A DNA stretch of 64,000 nucleotides from a virus (taxonomy: Duplodnaviria; Heunggongvirae; Uroviricota; Caudoviricetes): the IMG/VR virus record IMGVR_UViG_3300027851_000011; one strand, written 5' to 3'. Every line of letters begins with the position of its first letter. Positions within the stretch are counted from its first letter, which is position 1. Positions 8,058-22,437 of this stretch are shown here, piece by piece. The notes beneath the pieces were generated by a model, which did no database searches, was not told where the DNA came from, and saw nothing but the letters and a program-made list of their open reading frames with translations. The position numbers and the translations under genes are program-made.

Positions 8058-8651
8058 ATGTTCATCTCGAAGACCAGATTCTGGTCGGGCTACAACCGCG
8101 ACAGCGAACAGGTCGCTCGCGGCTTCTTCATGTACTGGCTCTCGATCTACAAGGATAGCTGGCTCTTCAACGAGAAGCCGGCCGATTATGTCGACATGGC
8201 CAGCACTGAACCGTTCTACACCCAGATTTACGCCACTGTACGGTATGTCCCGCTGCACCAACTCGGTCACTGGATGATGGGCCATGCTCGCGTCGGAGGT
8301 ATCAAGCTCTCTGCCAGCGGTTCGCTCGGCGGTGACGGCTTGCCACACACCACCGCTGAGATTGACCTCATCAAGCAACTCGGGTCGTTCACCAACCTTC
8401 GCACGTGGTTGGACAAACACTTCGAGGTCGTTCCTGAACCCGTGCATCTCGCATGGGCTAAGAGCGACGGACACAACACGTGCAACTCAACCGTCGTGCG
8501 CGACTATGGGGCTGACCTGTTCAAGCGCATGTACGAGAAGAAACGGGCTGGCAGCTGCTTCGGAGCTGCCCGCTACTGCATCAAGGACAAACCATGGGAT
8601 CTGCCGTTGCCGGCGCCTACTCCCGCATCGACTGTCTCTTCAGTTACCTGA
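8058..8651 (+). CDS. Hypothetical protein
   Basis: 197 aa ORF with RBS AAGGAAAC upstream. Confidence 0.45.
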   Translation: MFISKTRFWSGYNRDSEQVARGFFMYWLSIYKDSWLFNEKPADYVDMASTEPFYTQIYATVRYVPLHQLGHWMMGHARVGGIKLSASGSLGGDGLPHTTAEIDLIKQLGSFTNLRTWLDKHFEVVPEPVHLAWAKSDGHNTCNSTVVRDYGADLFKRMYEKKRAGSCFGAARYCIKDKPWDLPLPAPTPASTVSSVT

Positions 8652-10572: not shown

Positions 10573-10679
10573 GGCGGGACTTCCATTCGGACGTCACAAG
10601 TCAAGAATAGTCGTCCCGCCGGCCAGCCCCTCCTGTCAGCTCCAGTCCTCTCCTGCCAGCTCCTGCCCTCTCCTGTCAC
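10573..10679. promoter_or_regulatory. Intergenic repeat region: 8-bp inverted repeat plus three CTCCTGYCA(G/C)C direct repeats at about 19-20 bp spacing
   Basis: GGCGGGAC at 10573-10580 pairs with GTCCCGCC at 10613-10620. CTCCTGTCAGCTCC at 10630, CTCCTGCCAGCTCC at 10649, CTCCTGTCACC at 10669, followed by TTGACT. Confidence 0.35.
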
Positions 10680-10710
10680 CTTCTTTCGTTGACTCACCCT
10701 GGAATACCCC

Positions 10711-11451
10711 ATGATACGAGCGAGTTCCTTCGTCGGGCTCTTAGCTGGCGCCACCAGCACTGAATACCCCCGAGTGCAGGCTCGGGGGTTTTCTTTCGAC
10801 TACCTGCGTGCAACTGCATGGCTGATCGCGGCCCTGGCCGTGGCAGCCACTACCTTCTTCTTCCTCGATCGCTTCGCCCGGCCCGAGCCGGCGCCGGTGA
10901 TCGTTGCAGCTGTCAAGAAGCAGGAGCCGGCCCCGCTGCCGGCAGTCGATGCAGCAGCGCTCTACGCGATGGTGCACACGCCGGTTGTCGAGGCACCGCC
11001 GGCTGCACCGGCTCCTGTTCTGAAGCCCGGCCAGGAGGTCTATGACGGCTACATCGGCCGCTGGGTCGATGTTGTCGCCACAGGCTACAGCCCGCATGAT
11101 CCCATCGACGGCAACTACCACGCCACGAAAGGTAAGTGGCGTTGGATCACCGCTGATGGTGAAACCAATGTGCTCGAAGAGCCGTACGGAATCGCAGTCC
11201 CGCACACGCGTGGCAAGCCCCGTTGGCGCTACGGCACCAAGATGATCGTCCCTGTTGAAAGCGGATACCTTAGCACGCGTACAAACCGCGTGTTCACTGT
11301 CGATGACACAGGCTCGACCATCAGTCGCAACACCCGGAATAAAGGAGTCGTTCACATCGACCTCCGATTCCGAACCACTGGTTGGGCACAGAAGTACGGA
11401 ACGCACAGCATCCGTGTCTTCATTGTCGAATCAGAAAACACCGGAGAATAA
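10711..11451 (+). CDS. Signal-anchored 3D-domain protein (MltA/YuiC-like cell-wall binding / lytic transglycosylase fold); endolysin candidate
   Basis: N-terminal TMD WLIAALAVAATTFFFL. The C-terminus IAVPHTRGKP...GTKMIVPV...TVDDTGSTI...GVVHIDLRF matches the 3D-domain pattern (IP.GTKV...DTGGAI...IDLFF). Confidence 0.55.
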   Translation: MIRASSFVGLLAGATSTEYPRVQARGFSFDYLRATAWLIAALAVAATTFFFLDRFARPEPAPVIVAAVKKQEPAPLPAVDAAALYAMVHTPVVEAPPAAPAPVLKPGQEVYDGYIGRWVDVVATGYSPHDPIDGNYHATKGKWRWITADGETNVLEEPYGIAVPHTRGKPRWRYGTKMIVPVESGYLSTRTNRVFTVDDTGSTISRNTRNKGVVHIDLRFRTTGWAQKYGTHSIRVFIVESENTGE

Positions 11452-15387: not shown

Positions 15388-15647
15388 TGACTGACCTCAG
15401 CACATTCAGTGAAGACGAACTCCAGCGCGAACTCGATCGTCGGCACAACCAGCGCATCGACGAGATCATCGAAGAGCGCATCATCGTTCAGAAGTTCGTC
15501 GCAGCCAACAAAGAAGCCTTCATTCACTTCTTCCGGGTTGGTGGATGCACCTACCCGGAGGATGCGGTGAACGCGATCGCCAACGACATCAACTACCGGC
15601 CCGAAGCCCAAGCGCTTCGCGTCGACCTTCCCGAGAAGCGGCTCTAA
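15387..15647 (+). CDS. Hypothetical small protein
   Basis: In-frame ATG at 15387 gives MTDLSTFSEDELQ...; the longer 14592 ORF upstream is Arg-rich shadow. Confidence 0.4.
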   Translation: MTDLSTFSEDELQRELDRRHNQRIDEIIEERIIVQKFVAANKEAFIHFFRVGGCTYPEDAVNAIANDINYRPEAQALRVDLPEKRL

Positions 15648-16456
15648 TGGGATACACCACCAACTTCGAGGGCAACCTCGTGCTGTCGCCAAAGCTGAGC
15701 GACGCACAGGCTGCCTTCATCAACAAGCTCGCCGACACCCGCCGCATGAAGCGTAGCTTCATGCGGCTCGTCGGCGTTCCTGATCCGATTCGTGAAGCCG
15801 TCGGGCTTCCGCCCGGTGACGAGGGCGAGTTCTTCGTCGGCGAACCCGGCGACTTCGGCCAGGGCGACCACTTCAAGTCAGTCCTCGACAACAACCGCCC
15901 ACCGGGCACGCAGCCCGGCCTCTGGTGTCAGTGGATCATCGACGATGACGGCGATCTCGTCTGGAATGGCGGCGAGAAGTTCTACAAGTACACCGAGTGG
16001 CTCGAATACCTCATCGAGAAGCTCTTCAAGCCATGGGGCATCAAGGCCAACGGCCAGTTCATCTGGCAAGGCGAAGAGACCGGCGACGTCGGCACGATCG
16101 TCGTCGAAGACAACGTCGTGACGGTGCACAAGAACGTGCAGCTCAAGGCTGACTCCGATACGACGATGACGTTCAATGCCTACGCACAGGGCGTCCCGAA
16201 GCTGCCGAACACTGCGCTCGGGTCGCTCGGCTATAGTGCGCTCGGCCTCGCCGGTAAGTCCGGTGAGATCGCGTCCCTCATCAAGAAAGCCACGCGCGAC
16301 GCCAACGGCATCCCGAAAGACGTTCTGTGCGTCGAACTCGGCAACGCATTGTTCTACCTCAATGCCGTCGCCATCAGCGCCGGCCTCACCCTCGATGAAG
16401 TCGCTGGAGCCAGTCTCAAGCGTCTCGCTCAGAAGTACGGAAATCACCATGTCTGA
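15647..16456 (+). CDS. Protein with C-terminal MazG-like nucleotide pyrophosphohydrolase domain
   Basis: GKSGEIASLIKKA...VLCVELGNALFYLNAVAISAGLTLDEV...LKRLAQKYG resembles the MazG EExxE/helix core. Confidence 0.5.
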   Translation: MGYTTNFEGNLVLSPKLSDAQAAFINKLADTRRMKRSFMRLVGVPDPIREAVGLPPGDEGEFFVGEPGDFGQGDHFKSVLDNNRPPGTQPGLWCQWIIDDDGDLVWNGGEKFYKYTEWLEYLIEKLFKPWGIKANGQFIWQGEETGDVGTIVVEDNVVTVHKNVQLKADSDTTMTFNAYAQGVPKLPNTALGSLGYSALGLAGKSGEIASLIKKATRDANGIPKDVLCVELGNALFYLNAVAISAGLTLDEVAGASLKRLAQKYGNHHV

Positions 16457-17102
16457 ACTCGCATCTGTCCCCACTGCAACGTCCGGCGCCTATGGCATCG
16501 CCTACGACTTCGAGACCGGCGGCCTCAGCCCGGAGAAGAATCCGCCGCTCCAGCTCGCCATGGTCGTCGTGACTGCTGCGCTCGACGAGATCGACGCGCT
16601 CAGCGTGAAGATCAAGCCGGTGCCCGGCCTCATCATCGAGCCCGGAGCTGCTGCTGTGAACGGCTACACCGAAGCTGGCTGGGCGAACGCCATGCCGCTG
16701 AAGGAAGCCGAAGTCTTCTTCGCGAAGTACATCCGGCAGTGGTTCCCCGACCAGAAGCCCGTCAGCATCGGGCACAACATCCGTCGCTTCGACGTGACGT
16801 TCCTCCAGAAGTTCTTCCCGATGTGCGCGATGATGTTCTCACCGGACATGGTCGACACCCTCGTCGAGTTCAAGGAGTGGCGCAAGAAGAACAACATGCT
16901 GAAGGTGCGCGATCCGGCAACGGGCGCACTCGTGAACGGCAAGAACAACCTCGGCACGCTCGCGAAGTACGCGGGCTACAACATCGAGAAGGCTCACGAC
17001 GCGAAGTACGACTGCCGCGCTTCAATCGCTGGGCTCAAGTGGATGCTCAGCGGCGAAGGCATGCGCGCAGCGCCTGCGGACGATGGAGCAGACCGCGAAT
17101 AG
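16449..17102 (+). CDS. DEDDh 3'-5' exonuclease (DnaQ/epsilon-like)
   Basis: Exo I YDFETGGL and Exo III HDAKYD motifs. Start ATG overlaps the upstream stop (ATGTCTGA). Confidence 0.65.
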   Translation: MSELASVPTATSGAYGIAYDFETGGLSPEKNPPLQLAMVVVTAALDEIDALSVKIKPVPGLIIEPGAAAVNGYTEAGWANAMPLKEAEVFFAKYIRQWFPDQKPVSIGHNIRRFDVTFLQKFFPMCAMMFSPDMVDTLVEFKEWRKKNNMLKVRDPATGALVNGKNNLGTLAKYAGYNIEKAHDAKYDCRASIAGLKWMLSGEGMRAAPADDGADRE

Positions 17103-17165
17103 CCGGAATATAGGCCAATACACGGCAATAGCGGGCAATACCAGGGAATGCAGCGTAATGCACGC
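17103..17165. repeat. Six tandem 10-bp repeats G(C/G)AAT(A/G)nnn(g), helically phased
   Basis: AATA at 17107, 17117, 17127 and 17137; AATG at 17147 and 17157; spacing exactly 10 bp. Starts immediately after the exonuclease stop. Confidence 0.55.
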
Positions 17166-17321
17166 GTGCTACCCGTGGTGGTCTGCACTTATGACGCCAC
17201 AACATGTGGCGGCTTGACGGCCTTGCCCATCAGCTAGGCTTACAGGTCCCGGCAGCACACACTGCCCGCTATCCAAAGCCGGCTTGGCCTCCGGCTTCTC
17301 ACCCGACGAAGGAAAAACTCA

Positions 17322-20144
17322 ATGAATGCCGTGAACACGGTGCCGGAACCGGCACCAAGTGGCGAACCCGTCATCAAGCACCCGGATGATTACACCGGCC
17401 CGATGTTCAGCCGGGAAGTGATCGAAGAGTTTCAGAAGTTCTCGAAGGAGCCCTGGCTCGCTGTTGTTCGTCGTGCCTCGACATGGCACTACCACACGCA
17501 GCAGAACCCCACGCTCCCGAAGGTCGAAGAGCTGACGCCGTTCGATGTTCCGGCTGTGCGCGCCATTCGCGGAATCAGCCCAGGCGAGACCTGGGAACAG
17601 TTCGCGAAGAAGTGCAACCTGAACCTCTCGCGTCGTCTCGATGAGACCAACCCGTGGCTGCCGGGATTCGTGAATAAGAGCGATGATCGCCCGACGTCAT
17701 GGAACCGTAGCAACGCTGGATCTCCACTCGCTGACAATGCAGGATGCCAAGAGGCATTCGTCAAGATGCTCAAAGAGGACTGCCCATTCGGCGCCTCAAC
17801 AGGTCTCGGAGCTGCTGGCAACACGCTGGCACACTCCGCGATCGGCACGATGGTGACTGAAGACATCGTGACACTCGGAGAGATCGTCGACCAGCTCGCC
17901 AAGCTCCATCGCTTCTGGTTCAAGCCTCTCGGCGCCGAGTATCTCGACGCCGAGTTTCGTTATGGGAAGCATCTGTGCCTGCTCACGGGCCTCGGCTTCG
18001 GTGTCGTTCGTGCTGTCGCAAGCCGGCTGAAGGACTACTACGAGGGCCTCGACTTCTGGGAGACCTGCCACGAAGACCAGCTGCGTGAGTCCGCTATGGT
18101 CGCACGCCGAATCCATGGCTACCCCATGGGTCTGCTGCGCGTCGACGGTGCAAAGCTGACTGCGTTCCTCGAACGCCGTTCGTGTGCTCCCGGTGACTGG
18201 TTCACGCTCGTCATCCTCACGCACATCCTGAAGTACGCGCGGTTCAGCCATGTCAGTGACCGTGGCTGCCCCGTCGTGCAGGTGATCCGCGACGGGCGTC
18301 GCAACCTGTTCTACCTCGACGCAACACAGCTGCGGGCATCGTTCGGTATGTCGCAGAACACCAAGCTGCGCATCGACGTTCTCAAGGCCCTCGGCCTGCC
18401 GACGTCAGTCAATGCTGACTTCCCGCCGCCGTCGACGAGCGTCCTGGGCATCTTCGACATGCTGCGCCCGACTGATCTGTGCGAGCTTCGTTCGCTCGAT
18501 GATCTGATTCACCTCGCTGTTCCACGGGCTGTCGAACTGGTCCCCACCATGAAGTACATCGGGGAATACATGTTCGTCGATTACGGCATCGGCGCGACCA
18601 ACGTCGCACACATCGACTACGACAGCGGAAAGGTCGTGATCGAAGAGATCCTCACGGGTCTCGACATCGGTGCGATCCAGTGGCCTGAAGGCGCGCTCAC
18701 GAAGTCCGAACTCATGACCTGGAAGTCCTGTCTCCCGAAAGAGGTGAAGCCGATGCTCCCGTCCGAAACCGTCTTCAAGTACATCCGCAACTGCAATGAC
18801 CTGGGCATGGTCCGGGCACGCAACGCGATCTTCGACACCTGGATCCTGCTGAATCTGGCTCGCCCCAAGCTGGCTGGTACGAAGCTCGGCAACTCCATGG
18901 TGAACGAGTACCCTATCGGCATGATCCTCCCCATGGGTCATACGAAGGAAGAGACGACCAATCAGGGCAAGACCAATCTGGGCCGCATCATGCTGCACAC
19001 GATCTGCCCGAACGTTCCTGTCATCATCCCGTCGCGCTCGTCGAGCGCACCTGCTCAGCGCGCTGCGGCTTCGCCGCTCGACGACTACGGCACCGCGATC
19101 TACGACGAGTTCCAGCTGCCGTCGAGCCATGAGCACTTCCTGGCTCAGGCCGGACTCCAGTCGCTGGCAACGGGTGGCACGGTCACGCCGGGCCGCGCCA
19201 TGGAAAACAGCAAGGGCGTCAAGCTCAAGCACTCCATGGTCATCTGCGCGAAGATCAGCGCGTTCCCTGTCGACATCCGCAACCGTTCGTTCTGCTTCTT
19301 CATGGACACTATCGACGACAAGTCGCGGTGCACCGACGAAGAGCTGACGATCATCGGCACTGGCGTCGCTGCCAGCACCGTGCGCATGAACGCGCTCGCG
19401 TGGATGGACCGCATCGGCTTCGTCGAGAAGCTGAACACCATCGTCCCGAAGGCCAGCAAGCACAACCGCTTCTCTGCGTTCATCGCAGTTGCCGTGGCTC
19501 TGTGTCAGGCTGCTGGTGGCACTGAGAAGGAGGTCTACGACTACTTCGAGGCATGTGCCAACAAGTGTGAGGACCAGCATCTCAAGGCCACCGAAAGCGG
19601 ACTGGCTGATGAGATCGGTGCGAACGGCGAGTTCTCGGCCCGCCACTTCTTCAGCCAGTGCACCGTCAGCACGCTGGAGATCATCGCTCGCAACGATGGC
19701 AAGATGTGGGGCGCTGCCGAAATGCTGCGCAAGATGGTCGAAGACCAGGATCAGCGCCGCTATTCCGACGTTCTCCGCGAGTACCACATCAAGGAGAGCA
19801 CGGCGGTGCAGAAGTTCTGCAACGCTGTGAAGGACGGCAAGATGGTGATCGACGGTTGGAAGATCGAGTCGTACCACGACCCGCGCTCCCCGACCGAGAA
19901 GCGCCGCTACTACCGCATGGTGCGCGGCAACTTCAACTGTGATCCCACGGCTCCGTCTGCTGAGGAACTGAACGCGCACTTCAAGGCCGGCGAAGCCCCC
20001 GTGGCCGCACAGGCTCCGACTGGAACGCAGGCCGACGTCATCAAGGACAACCTGAAGCGCGACACGGCCTCAGACATCAAGGACGTGGCGCAGAACCCCG
20101 ACAAGTACGGCAGCGACAAGCCGCAGCCGAACCGCAACAAGTAA
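17322..20144 (+). CDS. Large (940 aa) protein of unknown function in the replication module
   Basis: Long + ORF with RBS GGAAAAACTCAATG. No Walker/helicase or polymerase motifs recognised. The antisense 524-aa ORF is a shadow. Confidence 0.5.
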   Translation: MNAVNTVPEPAPSGEPVIKHPDDYTGPMFSREVIEEFQKFSKEPWLAVVRRASTWHYHTQQNPTLPKVEELTPFDVPAVRAIRGISPGETWEQFAKKCNLNLSRRLDETNPWLPGFVNKSDDRPTSWNRSNAGSPLADNAGCQEAFVKMLKEDCPFGASTGLGAAGNTLAHSAIGTMVTEDIVTLGEIVDQLAKLHRFWFKPLGAEYLDAEFRYGKHLCLLTGLGFGVVRAVASRLKDYYEGLDFWETCHEDQLRESAMVARRIHGYPMGLLRVDGAKLTAFLERRSCAPGDWFTLVILTHILKYARFSHVSDRGCPVVQVIRDGRRNLFYLDATQLRASFGMSQNTKLRIDVLKALGLPTSVNADFPPPSTSVLGIFDMLRPTDLCELRSLDDLIHLAVPRAVELVPTMKYIGEYMFVDYGIGATNVAHIDYDSGKVVIEEILTGLDIGAIQWPEGALTKSELMTWKSCLPKEVKPMLPSETVFKYIRNCNDLGMVRARNAIFDTWILLNLARPKLAGTKLGNSMVNEYPIGMILPMGHTKEETTNQGKTNLGRIMLHTICPNVPVIIPSRSSSAPAQRAAASPLDDYGTAIYDEFQLPSSHEHFLAQAGLQSLATGGTVTPGRAMENSKGVKLKHSMVICAKISAFPVDIRNRSFCFFMDTIDDKSRCTDEELTIIGTGVAASTVRMNALAWMDRIGFVEKLNTIVPKASKHNRFSAFIAVAVALCQAAGGTEKEVYDYFEACANKCEDQHLKATESGLADEIGANGEFSARHFFSQCTVSTLEIIARNDGKMWGAAEMLRKMVEDQDQRRYSDVLREYHIKESTAVQKFCNAVKDGKMVIDGWKIESYHDPRSPTEKRRYYRMVRGNFNCDPTAPSAEELNAHFKAGEAPVAAQAPTGTQADVIKDNLKRDTASDIKDVAQNPDKYGSDKPQPNRNK

Positions 20145-20154
20145 CGGAGCATGC

Positions 20155-22437
20155 ATGCTGACTGAACCGACCACGGTGCAAACCGTGGCCTCGGTCACGT
20201 GCGCCCGTCGGCGCTACGCGACCGAGGGACCACTGTCGACGCTGATTCCAGTCTTCGTCGACGTTGAAACGTACATGAATGAGCGACGCGGCATCTCGCT
20301 GTCGTCGATGACGCTCAGGCAGTACATCAAGAACAGCTATCTCACGTCAATCGCTGTTGCCATTGCAGACAGCGCGACTGAGGTGTGGCTGACGCCGAAC
20401 GGTGAGGCGCCCAAAGACCTCATCGCGCTACTCACTGAGCTGGCTAAGGACCCGCGCTACGTCTTCGTCTGTCACAATGCGGCCTTCGACATTCGTGTGC
20501 TCCGCTTCATGCTGGGCATCCCGCAGCCGAAGAACGTGTGGTGCACCGTCGAGGGCGCTATGGGTGCGTGGCCTGAGTGCGTTGGTGGCTACAGCCTGAA
20601 GGCGCTCGGCGCGTTCCTTCAGCTTCCTGTCCACATGCTGAAGATCGACGTCGAAGAGGCTTTTGGCAAGACGCTGGAGCAGCTGACTGGTGCCGAAATG
20701 GCCCAGTACAACACCCGCGACGTCGATTCGATGCGAGAGATCTACTACTACCAGATCGCCTGCCTCTCTGCACGGGAGCAGGAGATCGCACTGATGACGC
20801 ACCACGTCCGTCAGTTCAACTTCGTCGTAGATCCAGATGCGCTCGTGAAGCTCATTGAGAAGCTGGACTTGAATGCCAACGATGCTCAGGAGAACGCGTC
20901 CGAACTGCTCTCTATGGAGCAGCTCGCAGAAGTGTTCAACCGCAACACGGGCGACGGGTCCCTCCGTTCCGTACGTGTTCAGCGCCTGAGCAAGCTCATC
21001 ACCGAGAAGTGGAACGTCACGCTTCCGACGACGAGCCTGAAGAAGCTCAGCCCGATCCTCCAGGCCAAGTACCCGGAGGTGACGAACCTGCTGAAGCAGA
21101 CCAGCCGTGCCAACAAGATGATCAGCCACGGTCGTCGATCCAAGATCTTCCGTGGCGTTCCTGAAGTCGACGTTGAGCTTGGCTTTGCCCGTGCTCACAC
21201 GTTCCGCTTCAGCTCTCCATCATCTGGCAAGGGCCTGAACCTGCACAACGTGCCGAAGCACGACAAGTCGGTTGCTGAACCGATCCGTCGCGTGTTCCGC
21301 ATGCCGCCAGACAAGTGTCTGGTGCGTGGTGACCTCGCGAACGTCGAGTTCCGCGTCGAAGGATGGCTGACGGACTCCAAGAATGTGTTCAAGATGTTCG
21401 ACCCTGCCCTTGGCGGCGACATCAACAACGATCCGTACTGCATGACGTGGAAGGCCATGACGTCGATCGCGATCACCAAGAAGGATCCCGTTCGTCAGGT
21501 CGCCAAGTCTGCTGTGCTCGGCCTCGGCTACTGCATGGGTGCCGCAGGCTACGCAAACGTCCTACTGGGCGTTCTCGCGGACAAGAAGAGCAAGGTGACT
21601 GAAGAGAAGTTGAATGAGATGCGTCTGTCTCTTGGGTGGGAGAAGAGCAAGCGGCTCAACTACATCATGGAGAAGACCAACTGCACCGAGATTACAGCTC
21701 TCGCTGCATATCACATTCACCGTCTGTTCAACGAAGCGTACCCCGAGTACACCCGCGTGGCTGATTGGCTGCTCCGCTTGGTTGAGAACGTCTCTGCGTG
21801 CGGCGACAGTGCTGCCAACGCACAGTACGAAATCGACCGGATGTACCAGTCGCACTATGCTCCTGATCGAAACAAGATCGGCATCGAACTCGATCCCGAC
21901 GAAACAACAGGAGTTAGCCTTCGCGTTCGTTGTGGCCCGTGGACTCCGACGGTGTGCTGGCGTCAGCCGCTCGTCCGTTCGATCTTCACGAACAACCACT
22001 CGGAACCAAGGCTCACCATCCTCAAGGCGACCGGCGAAGAGAAGCCGTTCACCAAGCAGCTCGCGATTGAGAACGTCACCCAGTCGGCAGCGCGCAACGC
22101 GCTCTGCTACGGGCTTCTCGAACTCAAGAAGCGCGGCGTCGTGGACATCCTGCACATCCACGACGAAGTCATGATCATCACCGATCGGAAGCGTGAGGCT
22201 GTGCTCCAGGCACGGCAGCACCTCATCGACGTCTTCGGGCCTGGGAACAACCACCCGATGAACTGGGCTATCCTCATCAAGCCTGAAGAGATCACGGTCA
22301 CCGAGTCCATGTACGAAGACGAGATGGACGTCGCTGTGCCCAAGCTGAACAAAGAAACCGGAAAGATGTCCGAAGGCAACGATCGCTGGGGTAAGATCCT
22401 GCGCAACGAGCCCGACATGTTCCTCAACCTCACCTGA
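20155..22437 (+). CDS. Family A DNA polymerase with N-terminal 3'-5' proofreading exonuclease domain
   Basis: Exo motifs FVDVETY and HNAAFD. Pol motif A DLANVEFRV, motif B RQVAKSAVLGLGYCMG, motif C LHIHDEV. Confidence 0.8.
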   Translation: MLTEPTTVQTVASVTCARRRYATEGPLSTLIPVFVDVETYMNERRGISLSSMTLRQYIKNSYLTSIAVAIADSATEVWLTPNGEAPKDLIALLTELAKDPRYVFVCHNAAFDIRVLRFMLGIPQPKNVWCTVEGAMGAWPECVGGYSLKALGAFLQLPVHMLKIDVEEAFGKTLEQLTGAEMAQYNTRDVDSMREIYYYQIACLSAREQEIALMTHHVRQFNFVVDPDALVKLIEKLDLNANDAQENASELLSMEQLAEVFNRNTGDGSLRSVRVQRLSKLITEKWNVTLPTTSLKKLSPILQAKYPEVTNLLKQTSRANKMISHGRRSKIFRGVPEVDVELGFARAHTFRFSSPSSGKGLNLHNVPKHDKSVAEPIRRVFRMPPDKCLVRGDLANVEFRVEGWLTDSKNVFKMFDPALGGDINNDPYCMTWKAMTSIAITKKDPVRQVAKSAVLGLGYCMGAAGYANVLLGVLADKKSKVTEEKLNEMRLSLGWEKSKRLNYIMEKTNCTEITALAAYHIHRLFNEAYPEYTRVADWLLRLVENVSACGDSAANAQYEIDRMYQSHYAPDRNKIGIELDPDETTGVSLRVRCGPWTPTVCWRQPLVRSIFTNNHSEPRLTILKATGEEKPFTKQLAIENVTQSAARNALCYGLLELKKRGVVDILHIHDEVMIITDRKREAVLQARQHLIDVFGPGNNHPMNWAILIKPEEITVTESMYEDEMDVAVPKLNKETGKMSEGNDRWGKILRNEPDMFLNLT

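Follow-up and report, generated by a model that had tools for sequence, protein, structure and literature searches.

We find that the gap between an exonuclease gene and the gene for a 940-aa helicase in a virus of the Caudoviricetes (IMG/VR record IMGVR_UViG_3300027851_000011) holds an array of six direct 10-bp repeats, and that two independent relatives carry 10-bp arrays in the corresponding position. The DNA analysed, 64,000 nucleotides read on one strand and called the window throughout, had been covered before by a preliminary description made from the letters alone. The array is a real and conserved element on which a replication or regulatory protein probably docks. We favor the reading that it serves the adjacent helicase as an origin or as an assembly site of the iteron type, and possibly in autoregulation too, to which we give a probability of roughly 0.4; binding of a protein to the array, the helicase as that protein and a start of replication at this place are all things we infer. 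The three arrays are located as follows:

Window 17104–17163, + strand: direct 10-bp array of six units, consensus GGCAATACAG, from sequence reading, an AAT scan and a position-weight matrix
L040 368–437: array of seven units at exact 10-bp spacing, directly after the stop codon
L006 1129–1188: array of six units of another word, CGTCRAAC, about 30 nt past the exonuclease stop

The stretch from 17100 to 17166 reads TAG (the exonuclease stop codon, 17100–17102), ccgg, and then AATAtaggcc, AATAcacggc, AATAgcgggc, AATAccaggg, AATGcagcgt and AATGcacgcg, with the AAT cores starting at 17107, 17117, 17127, 17137, 17147 and 17157. The core AAT(A/G) is thus present in six of six units at a period of exactly 10 bp. 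That six such cores follow the exonuclease stop at exact 10-bp steps had been claimed before, and our re-reading bears it out and adds that this is the only such run in the 64 kb: AAT occurs 253 times in the window, and a scan of both strands for runs of at least three at any period from 7 to 13 returned the array alone. From these counts the chance expectation of a six-unit run is about 64000 x (253/64000)^6 = 2e-10. The AAT columns are invariant among the window units and the remaining columns show 27–67% pairwise identity; three adjacent fully conserved columns arose in 0 of 20,000 random arrays of equal composition. Because the units share so little outside the core, Tandem Repeats Finder gave a weak signal for the array, two short rows. 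A search for further members of the 10-mer family, as the preliminary description had proposed, was run on the window with the position-weight matrix of the units and found no second cluster, and blastn-short found no second copy of the intergenic region in the window. The GC content of the array is about 0.5.

A lack of conservation in relatives had been named as grounds for refuting the earlier proposal, and the arrays of L040 and L006 speak for a function. The L040 units are GATATGGGCG, AATACGCGGC, AATAGCGGGC, AATGTAGGCG, AATGCAGGCG, AAAACAGCGT and AATACGACGT, and the N-terminus of the helicase encoded there is 81% identical to that of the window. L006 is more distant (64% identity in the exonuclease, 52–56% in the helicase N-terminus), and its units are CATAAAACC, ACGTCAAACC, ACGTCAAACA, GCGTCGAACC, GCGTCGAACC again and GCGTCAAACC, with the columns C3, T5 and C10 conserved at 100%. 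The spacing is exactly 10 bp in 16 of 16 intervals over the three arrays. What the arrays share most is an A-rich triplet (AAT, AAA or GAA) held at strict 10-bp phase, and not a longer word. A further locus, L005, has an intergenic sequence identical to that of the window and represents the same phage in another read set.

How fast the array changes can be read from the comparison of the window with L040. Identity is 90% in the 3′ coding DNA of the exonuclease, 68% in the array, 63%, with indels, in the segment from the array to a TTGACG hexamer, 96–97% in the leader from TTGACG to the helicase ATG, and 75% in the 5′ coding DNA of the helicase. The array turns over by gain or loss of whole units and by substitutions outside the core, with phase and A-rich core retained. 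Such turnover is also what a slippage-prone 10-bp tandem repeat without function would give, and the 16 exact intervals, the extra unit in L040 and the identical adjacent units in L006 are signatures of slippage or concerted evolution in what is the fastest-evolving part of the module. The decay is not uniform, however: the AAT core columns do not vary at all in the window and are kept at about 90% in L040, and the rest is near random; the array has been retained across lineages down to 52–64% protein identity; and only one other phased array was detected in the 64 kb. As the turnover outside the core is fast and phase and core are kept, the pattern argues for selection on a short contact or core and on helical register, which is what short iterons should show, and we regard a purely neutral minisatellite as very improbable.

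The array belongs to a module that comes and goes as a whole. L007, a distant relative, lacks the gap altogether, its exonuclease and helicase genes overlapping by ATGA, which indicates that the 220–260-bp gap is an insertion specific to the lineage of the window, L040 and L006. This point, like the involvement of array units 1–3 in an inverted repeat described below, is absent from the preliminary description. A repeated mobile element of the kind of a miniature inverted-repeat transposable element was considered and dropped, as no second copy occurs in the window. The array, the promoter-like element that contains the TTGACG hexamer, and the leader occur together in three of three loci and are jointly absent in the other relatives. 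The helicase homologues of L001, L002 and L003/L004 (80%, 63% and 52% identity) are preceded by other genes and not by the exonuclease. We used a detector for phased triplets, which asks for at least five of seven identical triplets at a period of 10 or 11 bp, on the window and nine loci; it responded to the three arrays, to both arrays of the window again in their L005 copies, to a period-11 run of CGC at position 4259 of L001 and to one unrelated 20-bp tandem repeat, and it found no phased array near the helicase homologues of L001, L002 and L003/L004.

The genes that flank the array, with the polymerase gene that follows, are these:

16449–17102, + strand: DnaQ/RNase T-type 3′-5′ exonuclease gene, 217 aa (Pfam RNase_T, phrog_192)
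17322–20144, + strand: gene for a predicted replicative helicase of superfamily 3 (SF3; D5/Cch type), 940 aa (AlphaFold2 model, Foldseek, Walker motifs)
20155–22437, + strand: family-A DNA polymerase gene with a 3′-5′ exonuclease domain (Pfam/PHROG)

The non-coding region had been placed at 17103–17321, and these limits stand, although its length is 219 bp rather than 220. The claim that a block of replication genes follows was confirmed, since the model of the 940-aa protein matches self-loading SF3 helicases and the gene for a family-A polymerase comes next. The 940-aa protein has no Pfam or PHROG match, a profile search against PDB sequences gave nothing, and none of ten distant members of its family has a Pfam match; it follows that there is no sequence homology to Rep or Cch by these searches. 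The family comprises about 201 clusters at 50% identity in a representative library of 1.84 billion proteins, and the Walker A and B motifs are conserved. An AlphaFold2 model built with 58 family members reached a predicted local distance difference test (pLDDT) score of 89.5 and a predicted template-modelling (pTM) score of 0.80. Among solved structures, Foldseek placed SCCmec Cch (5dgk), SaPI5 PriRep (7ola) and PriRep1 (7pds) at the top; the primase-polymerase of African swine fever virus, NrS-1, poxvirus D5/E5 and Rep68 of adeno-associated virus were also matched, and among viral models the matches were phage helicases, primases and primase-helicases. By these matches to the model we read the 940-aa protein as a self-loading SF3-type replicative helicase. 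Its C-terminus is modelled as helices (798–837) followed by a beta-hairpin (846–868), so that residues from about 795 to 870 probably form a winged helix. The N-terminal 480 residues comprise a helical domain and a beta-rich domain.

The helicase is therefore of the same structural class as the self-loading helicases of SaPI and SCCmec elements (Rep, PriRep, Cch). The C-terminal winged helix of SaPI Rep helicases reads 6–12 penta- or hexanucleotide iterons that adjoin the gene of the helicase itself, and the iteron specificity varies between elements (PMC9371898). The likeness to the gap described here, with its six to seven units and a core of 3–6 bp in 219 bp, is what leads us to suggest the following. 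The array would act as double-stranded DNA in which six or seven weak, similar sites, all pointing the same way, follow one another at each helical turn, and a protein could assemble on them cooperatively along one face of the helix and bend the DNA. The likeliest binder would be the product of the next gene, the self-loading SF3 helicase with its putative C-terminal winged helix. This helicase would recognize the units as iterons and assemble there, and the exonuclease-helicase-polymerase module would have its origin, or helicase-loading site, in the array. The same binding could also autoregulate the helicase gene, because the array lies 50–110 bp upstream of the promoter-like element of that gene. 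Direct repeats beside an initiator gene that serve both initiation and autoregulation are known from the iterons of plasmids and phages (PMC4980987, PMC7145576). That the unit has changed in L006, the phage with the more diverged helicase, is in keeping with a specificity that evolves together with the protein.

If the helicase does assemble on the array, 60 bp of DNA and one protein would provide a cheap handle on how self-loading helicases recognize their start site, in the setting of a large GC-rich environmental phage and with three natural specificity variants available for swaps. Such an origin would be unlike the SaPI and plasmid models, in that it has direct repeats one turn apart, no AT-rich region and an enclosing inverted repeat. 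Classical iterons (RK2, P1, lambda ori, RepA_N) are 17–22 bp long and usually about two turns apart, and are accompanied by an AT-rich unwinding region and by Rep/winged-helix initiators. In contrast, the units described here are 10 bp with a core of 3–4 bp and no AT-rich stretch, and hence do not make a classical Rep-iteron origin. The class to which the array belongs, helically phased direct-repeat binding arrays in control or origin regions, is known; what is new is its particular sequence, the helicase family that accompanies it and the inverted repeat around it.

Several observations weigh against an assembly site or origin. The gap contains no AT-rich unwinding element, its lowest 30-bp GC content being 0.43, at the ribosome-binding site. 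All units point in the same direction at a strict 10 bp, whereas SaPI origins have an AT-rich centre with opposed sets of at least two iterons on each side, and the SaPI iterons lie downstream of the gene whereas the array lies upstream (PMC9371898). L001, whose helicase is 80% identical, has no AAT array in 12.8 kb, even though the winged-helix region of its helicase is nearly identical to that of the window up to about residue 855. What L001 has is a cluster of GGTGTC, three times direct, and GACACC, three times inverted, at 8096–8200 around a spacer of about 45 bp that is richer in AT; the cluster is part of a non-coding region of 1.3 kb, stands 1.4 kb upstream of the helicase gene and is absent in the window. 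L002, L003, L041 and L042 are likewise without arrays, and these array-less relatives indicate that the array tracks the exonuclease-helicase junction and not the helicase. The cumulative GC skew has no inflection near 17 kb. Finally, the known arrays number three, and the helicases of L040 and L006 are partial. On the other side of the scale, 4 of 13 putative recognition-helix residues differ between the helicases of the window and L001, as does the wing, so that a change of specificity between the two is possible. The preliminary description had offered iterons or an origin, bent DNA and an operator as equal choices; the setting in a replication module is borne out, and no computation made here separates an origin from an operator.

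As an observation on L001 itself, the GGTGTC/GACACC cluster has the classic layout of SaPI origins, with two opposed sets of iterons.

A different kind of array protein has to be weighed together with the remaining elements of the gap, which are listed here:

17098–17101, + strand: extra AATA that overlaps the exonuclease stop codon, 9 bp before unit 1; AGTA in L040
17168–17182, + strand: small hairpin GCTACC-cgt-GGTGGT, common to the window, L040 and L006, with G.U wobble pairs
17195–17211, no strand: palindrome CGCCACA-aca-TGTGGCG, degraded in L040 and absent in L006
17214–17240, + strand: promoter-like TTGACG-N15-TAGGCT, kept in L040; TTGACG-N15-TAGAGT in L006
17214–17321, + strand: highly conserved leader that holds GGTCCCGGC, two local hairpins and, at 17309–17312, the AGGA of the ribosome-binding site; 96–97% identity to L040

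The array could instead serve a small regulator of the Xis/Cox/Apl type, with a winged-helix or helix-turn-helix fold, as its operator or upstream activating array. Monomers of the regulator would bind the direct repeats cooperatively, bend or wrap the DNA and switch the promoter of the helicase and polymerase genes on or off, and the array would have no direct role in initiation. The architecture fits: Apl binds seven and five direct repeats at 10–11-bp spacing, with weak single sites, cooperativity, bending and flexible recognition (PMC7498355), and P2 Cox binds at least six cox-boxes at 10–11 bp and activates P4 PLL when the boxes lie upstream (PMC3936717). More generally, the arrays of recombination directionality factors (186 Apl, P2 Cox, lambda Xis) resemble ours in having five to seven or more direct repeats one turn apart with low information per site. 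They differ in that their spacing varies between 10 and 11 bp, where ours is exactly 10 bp, and in that they belong to integration and lysogeny switches, whereas our array sits in a replication module with nucleotide-metabolism and replication genes as neighbours. The array stands upstream of a conserved element that is the sole match to TTGAC-N14-18-TAnnnT on both strands of the 64 kb, a rarity which suggests that host-type promoters are rare in the phage, and the three-of-three co-occurrence of array, promoter-like element and leader, with their joint absence elsewhere, fits a regulatory unit as well. The TTGACG that had been pointed out before is located at 17214–17219 and is conserved, but the TAGGCT with which it pairs lies at a 15-nt spacer and the pair fails the standard sigma-70 scan, which uses spacers of 16–18 nt and found no pair in 16800–17600. 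The assignment as a promoter is thus weak, and the array ends about 48 bp before the –35-like hexamer without overlapping it.

The choice of regulator bears on this explanation too. An HTH_17 gene stands directly upstream of the helicase gene in L001 and L002. These two loci have no phased array, though, and no HTH_17 homologue was found in the 64-kb window, beyond which the source contig of 200,781 bp extends by about 137 kb; within the window there is consequently no candidate binder for a regulator array. We consider a pure regulator array rather unlikely, and if the array were a Cox/Apl-like operator or a bend it would be an ordinary regulatory device, with its value in annotating the control region of a replication operon. 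We note separately that in L001 (9158–9445) and L002 (3049–3327) the HTH_17 gene, of the excisionase family, is followed by a hairpin with a 19-bp stem directly upstream of the helicase gene, and that the HTH_17 gene there occupies the position of the window's repeat module.

Phased A-tracts of curved DNA upstream of bacterial and phage promoters are built from A4–6 tracts. The array resembles them in placing an A/T-rich element at every turn ahead of a –35-like hexamer and in its high predicted bend, and it differs in that its cores are AAT, AAA or GAA and in its distance from the hexamer. Static, intrinsically curved DNA, in which the phased A/T-rich triplet would bend the helix and stimulate the promoter or attract a host nucleoid protein with no need of a dedicated sequence-specific binder, would account for the strict phase of the A-rich triplet as the best conserved property of the three arrays. 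The prediction of curvature that had been proposed earlier was run as a wedge-model calculation and gave a 60-bp bend of 56 degrees in the window, 65 in L040 and 85 in L006, all three in the 99.8th percentile of the window or higher. Between the last core and TTGACG lie 57, 66 and 80 bp in the same order, distances that agree modulo 10.5 within about ±1.75 bp. However, any sequence with a 10-bp period scores as curved, and the score is therefore not independent evidence; we dropped curvature as a discriminating test. AAT is moreover a poor A-tract, and selection for curvature would be expected to favor A4–A6; L006 also conserves non-A/T positions (its columns C3, T5 and C10); and seven other sites in the window, all inside genes, have a similar predicted bend. 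Static bending seems to us improbable as the function of the array.

The module is closed from end to end by an inverted repeat, of which the array itself supplies one arm:

17101–17137, no strand: 5′ arm, interleaved with array units 1–3 (blocks AGCCGGA, GGCCAA, CGGC and ATAGCGGGCA)
17263–17296, no strand: 3′ arm (TGCCCGCTAT, GCCG, TTGGCC and TCCGGCT), which ends just before the helicase ribosome-binding site

The blocks of the arms pair in order and the AATA segments stay unpaired. When the 45 nt at the exonuclease stop were set against the 45 nt before the helicase Shine-Dalgarno sequence and compared with dinucleotide shuffles, the arm-to-arm duplex scored z = –7.2 in the window (500 shuffles), –3.95 in L040 and –2.9 in L006, the arms being 125–190 nt apart in the three sequences. 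The arm sequences of L006 differ from those of the window, and its 5′ arm precedes the array whereas that of the window lies within it. Unit 3 and its inverted partner TGCCCGCTAT (17263–17272), the one inverted partial unit, are 100% conserved in L040, as nothing else in the array region is. Since the stems are all Watson-Crick, a DNA inverted repeat fits them equally well, and the structure could be an extrudable DNA stem-loop, an mRNA helix from stop to start, or the remnant terminal repeats of an insertion.

As DNA, the closing inverted repeat could supply the helicase with an extrudable stem-loop, as has been proposed for replication proteins that combine primase, SF3 helicase and winged helix. 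Proteins of the pRN1 ORF904 type are proposed to assemble at a gene-adjacent stem-loop of which the structure is conserved and the sequence is not (PMC4234260). The likeness lies in the large inverted repeat beside the replication gene. The pRN1 stem-loop is about 100 nt long, downstream of the gene and without iterons, whereas here the arms enclose the array and the promoter-like element; and the pRN1 proteins have a primase-polymerase domain, none of which was identified in the 940-aa protein.

As RNA, the module could be a structured part of a polycistronic mRNA, in which a long-range helix joins the exonuclease stop to the helicase ribosome-binding site and keeps the two genes coupled, with the repeats as a looped-out or bulged platform for an RNA-binding factor. 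The ATGA overlap in L007 suggests that translational coupling is probably ancestral. In the window, L040 and L006 alike the two ends of the gap are significantly complementary, shuffled controls fold less well than the intergenic RNA of the window (z = –4.2) and of L006 (z = –3.5), and the small hairpin (CCACTAC-ccaacct-GTGGTGG in L040, ACTACC-act-GGTAGT in L006) keeps its pairing through G.U wobbles that work on the + strand only. In L040, however, the fold reaches z = –1.8 and the changes in units 1–2 are uncompensated; the minus strand of the window folds nearly as well (z = –3.1); and the array is partly paired in the window and L040 and lies in an open multiloop in L006, which leaves it no consistent role in RNA. 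The long-range stems do not discriminate between RNA and DNA for the reason given above, Rfam 15 gave no match at gathering score in the whole window and none at E <= 1 in 17000–17420, and there is no evident reason why an RNA should have a period of exactly 10 nt. We hold an RNA element for quite improbable. A Rho-loading (rut) site common to the loci was ruled out on the grounds of differing base composition, as C exceeds G in L006 but in neither the window nor L040.

A bolder form of the assembly-site reading, which we consider a long shot, is that the module is a portable, self-contained origin cassette, in which the six to seven repeats match the subunits of a helicase ring and the inverted repeat is both a DNA stem-loop and an mRNA helix. 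The repeats would each receive one C-terminal winged helix, and a ring or lock-washer would thus assemble on the DNA or wrap it. The cassette would have been inserted between genes that formerly overlapped and were coupled, and the mRNA helix would restore the coupling of exonuclease stop to helicase start. Outside all of these, a packaging or partition site takes whatever small likelihood is left.

Among the minor elements of the gap, the seventh AATA, at 17098, is probably not part of the array, on account of its 9-bp offset and the AGTA at its position in L040. The palindrome had been reported at 17198–17214; it is present, but at 17195–17211, and it is not conserved, being degraded in L040 and absent in L006. 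As neither is conserved, we dropped both as functional parts. The leader, on the other hand, is under stronger constraint than the flanking proteins, and the hairpin before the ribosome-binding site shows one compensatory pair change. Open reading frames (ORFs) that enter the gap, on the minus strand (16994–17188 and 17047–17205) and on the plus strand (17204–17389), were dropped as coding candidates because L040 carries a 10-bp indel and L006 has a stop after 12 codons.

At 60% GC, the window is transcribed from the + strand almost throughout. It encodes DUF932, methyltransferase-like and MazG-like proteins, the DnaQ/RNase T exonuclease, the family-A polymerase, an SNF2-type helicase and thymidylate synthase, and it contains no tRNA. 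The identical helicase protein is recorded on a contig of 200,781 bp, so that the phage is probably large and uncultured. The mechanically called exonuclease ORF (16176–17102, 308 aa) overlaps the MazG-like ORF (15545–16456). An identical product of 217 aa is called on an independent contig, and for this reason the exonuclease probably starts at 16449 and not at 16176, which leaves an overlap of 8 nt with the end of the upstream gene. The polymerase has homologues that are 83% identical in L002 and 50% identical in L041; in L041 it lies directly 3′ of the helicase homologue, as in the window, and in L002 it lies upstream of the HTH_17 gene and the helicase gene.

Relatives were sought widely. 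INPHARED phages gave no match to a near-identity DNA search or to tblastn of the 940-aa protein, and neither did PLSDB plasmids to tblastn of the same protein. No relatives were found in IMG/VR through the helicase, the polymerase, the exonuclease or an alignment of 14 helicase sequences, an alignment of 58 being too diverse for that scan. The DNA pattern of the conserved leader, GGTCCCGGC-N25-55-GACGAAGGAAAA, matched nothing in IMG/VR, and the 32 metagenome loci it returned elsewhere (L008–L039) are chance matches without homology. In GTDB, helicase homologues of 30% identity occur at two loci, both free of arrays, in metagenome-assembled genomes (MAGs) of Planctomycetota. L041 is a 200,168-bp contig of a Phycisphaerae MAG and L042 comes from a Planctomycetota MAG; both may be large phages related to this one, with contigs that were binned as bacterial, and may hint at the host group. 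Two distant exonuclease homologues, L043 and L044, are on contigs that end at the exonuclease gene.

The window contains a second 10-bp-phased array, a 20-bp tandem repeat of CCAGCCCTCTCCTGTCAGCT in 2.8 copies at 10623–10678, which is also found in L005 at about 2156. It lies some 11 bp upstream of a TTGACT (10690), and a strong hairpin with a T-run follows at about 10768–10796, inside ORF 10711–11451 or just after its start. The stretch 10610–10800 may be another regulatory region or encode a small RNA.

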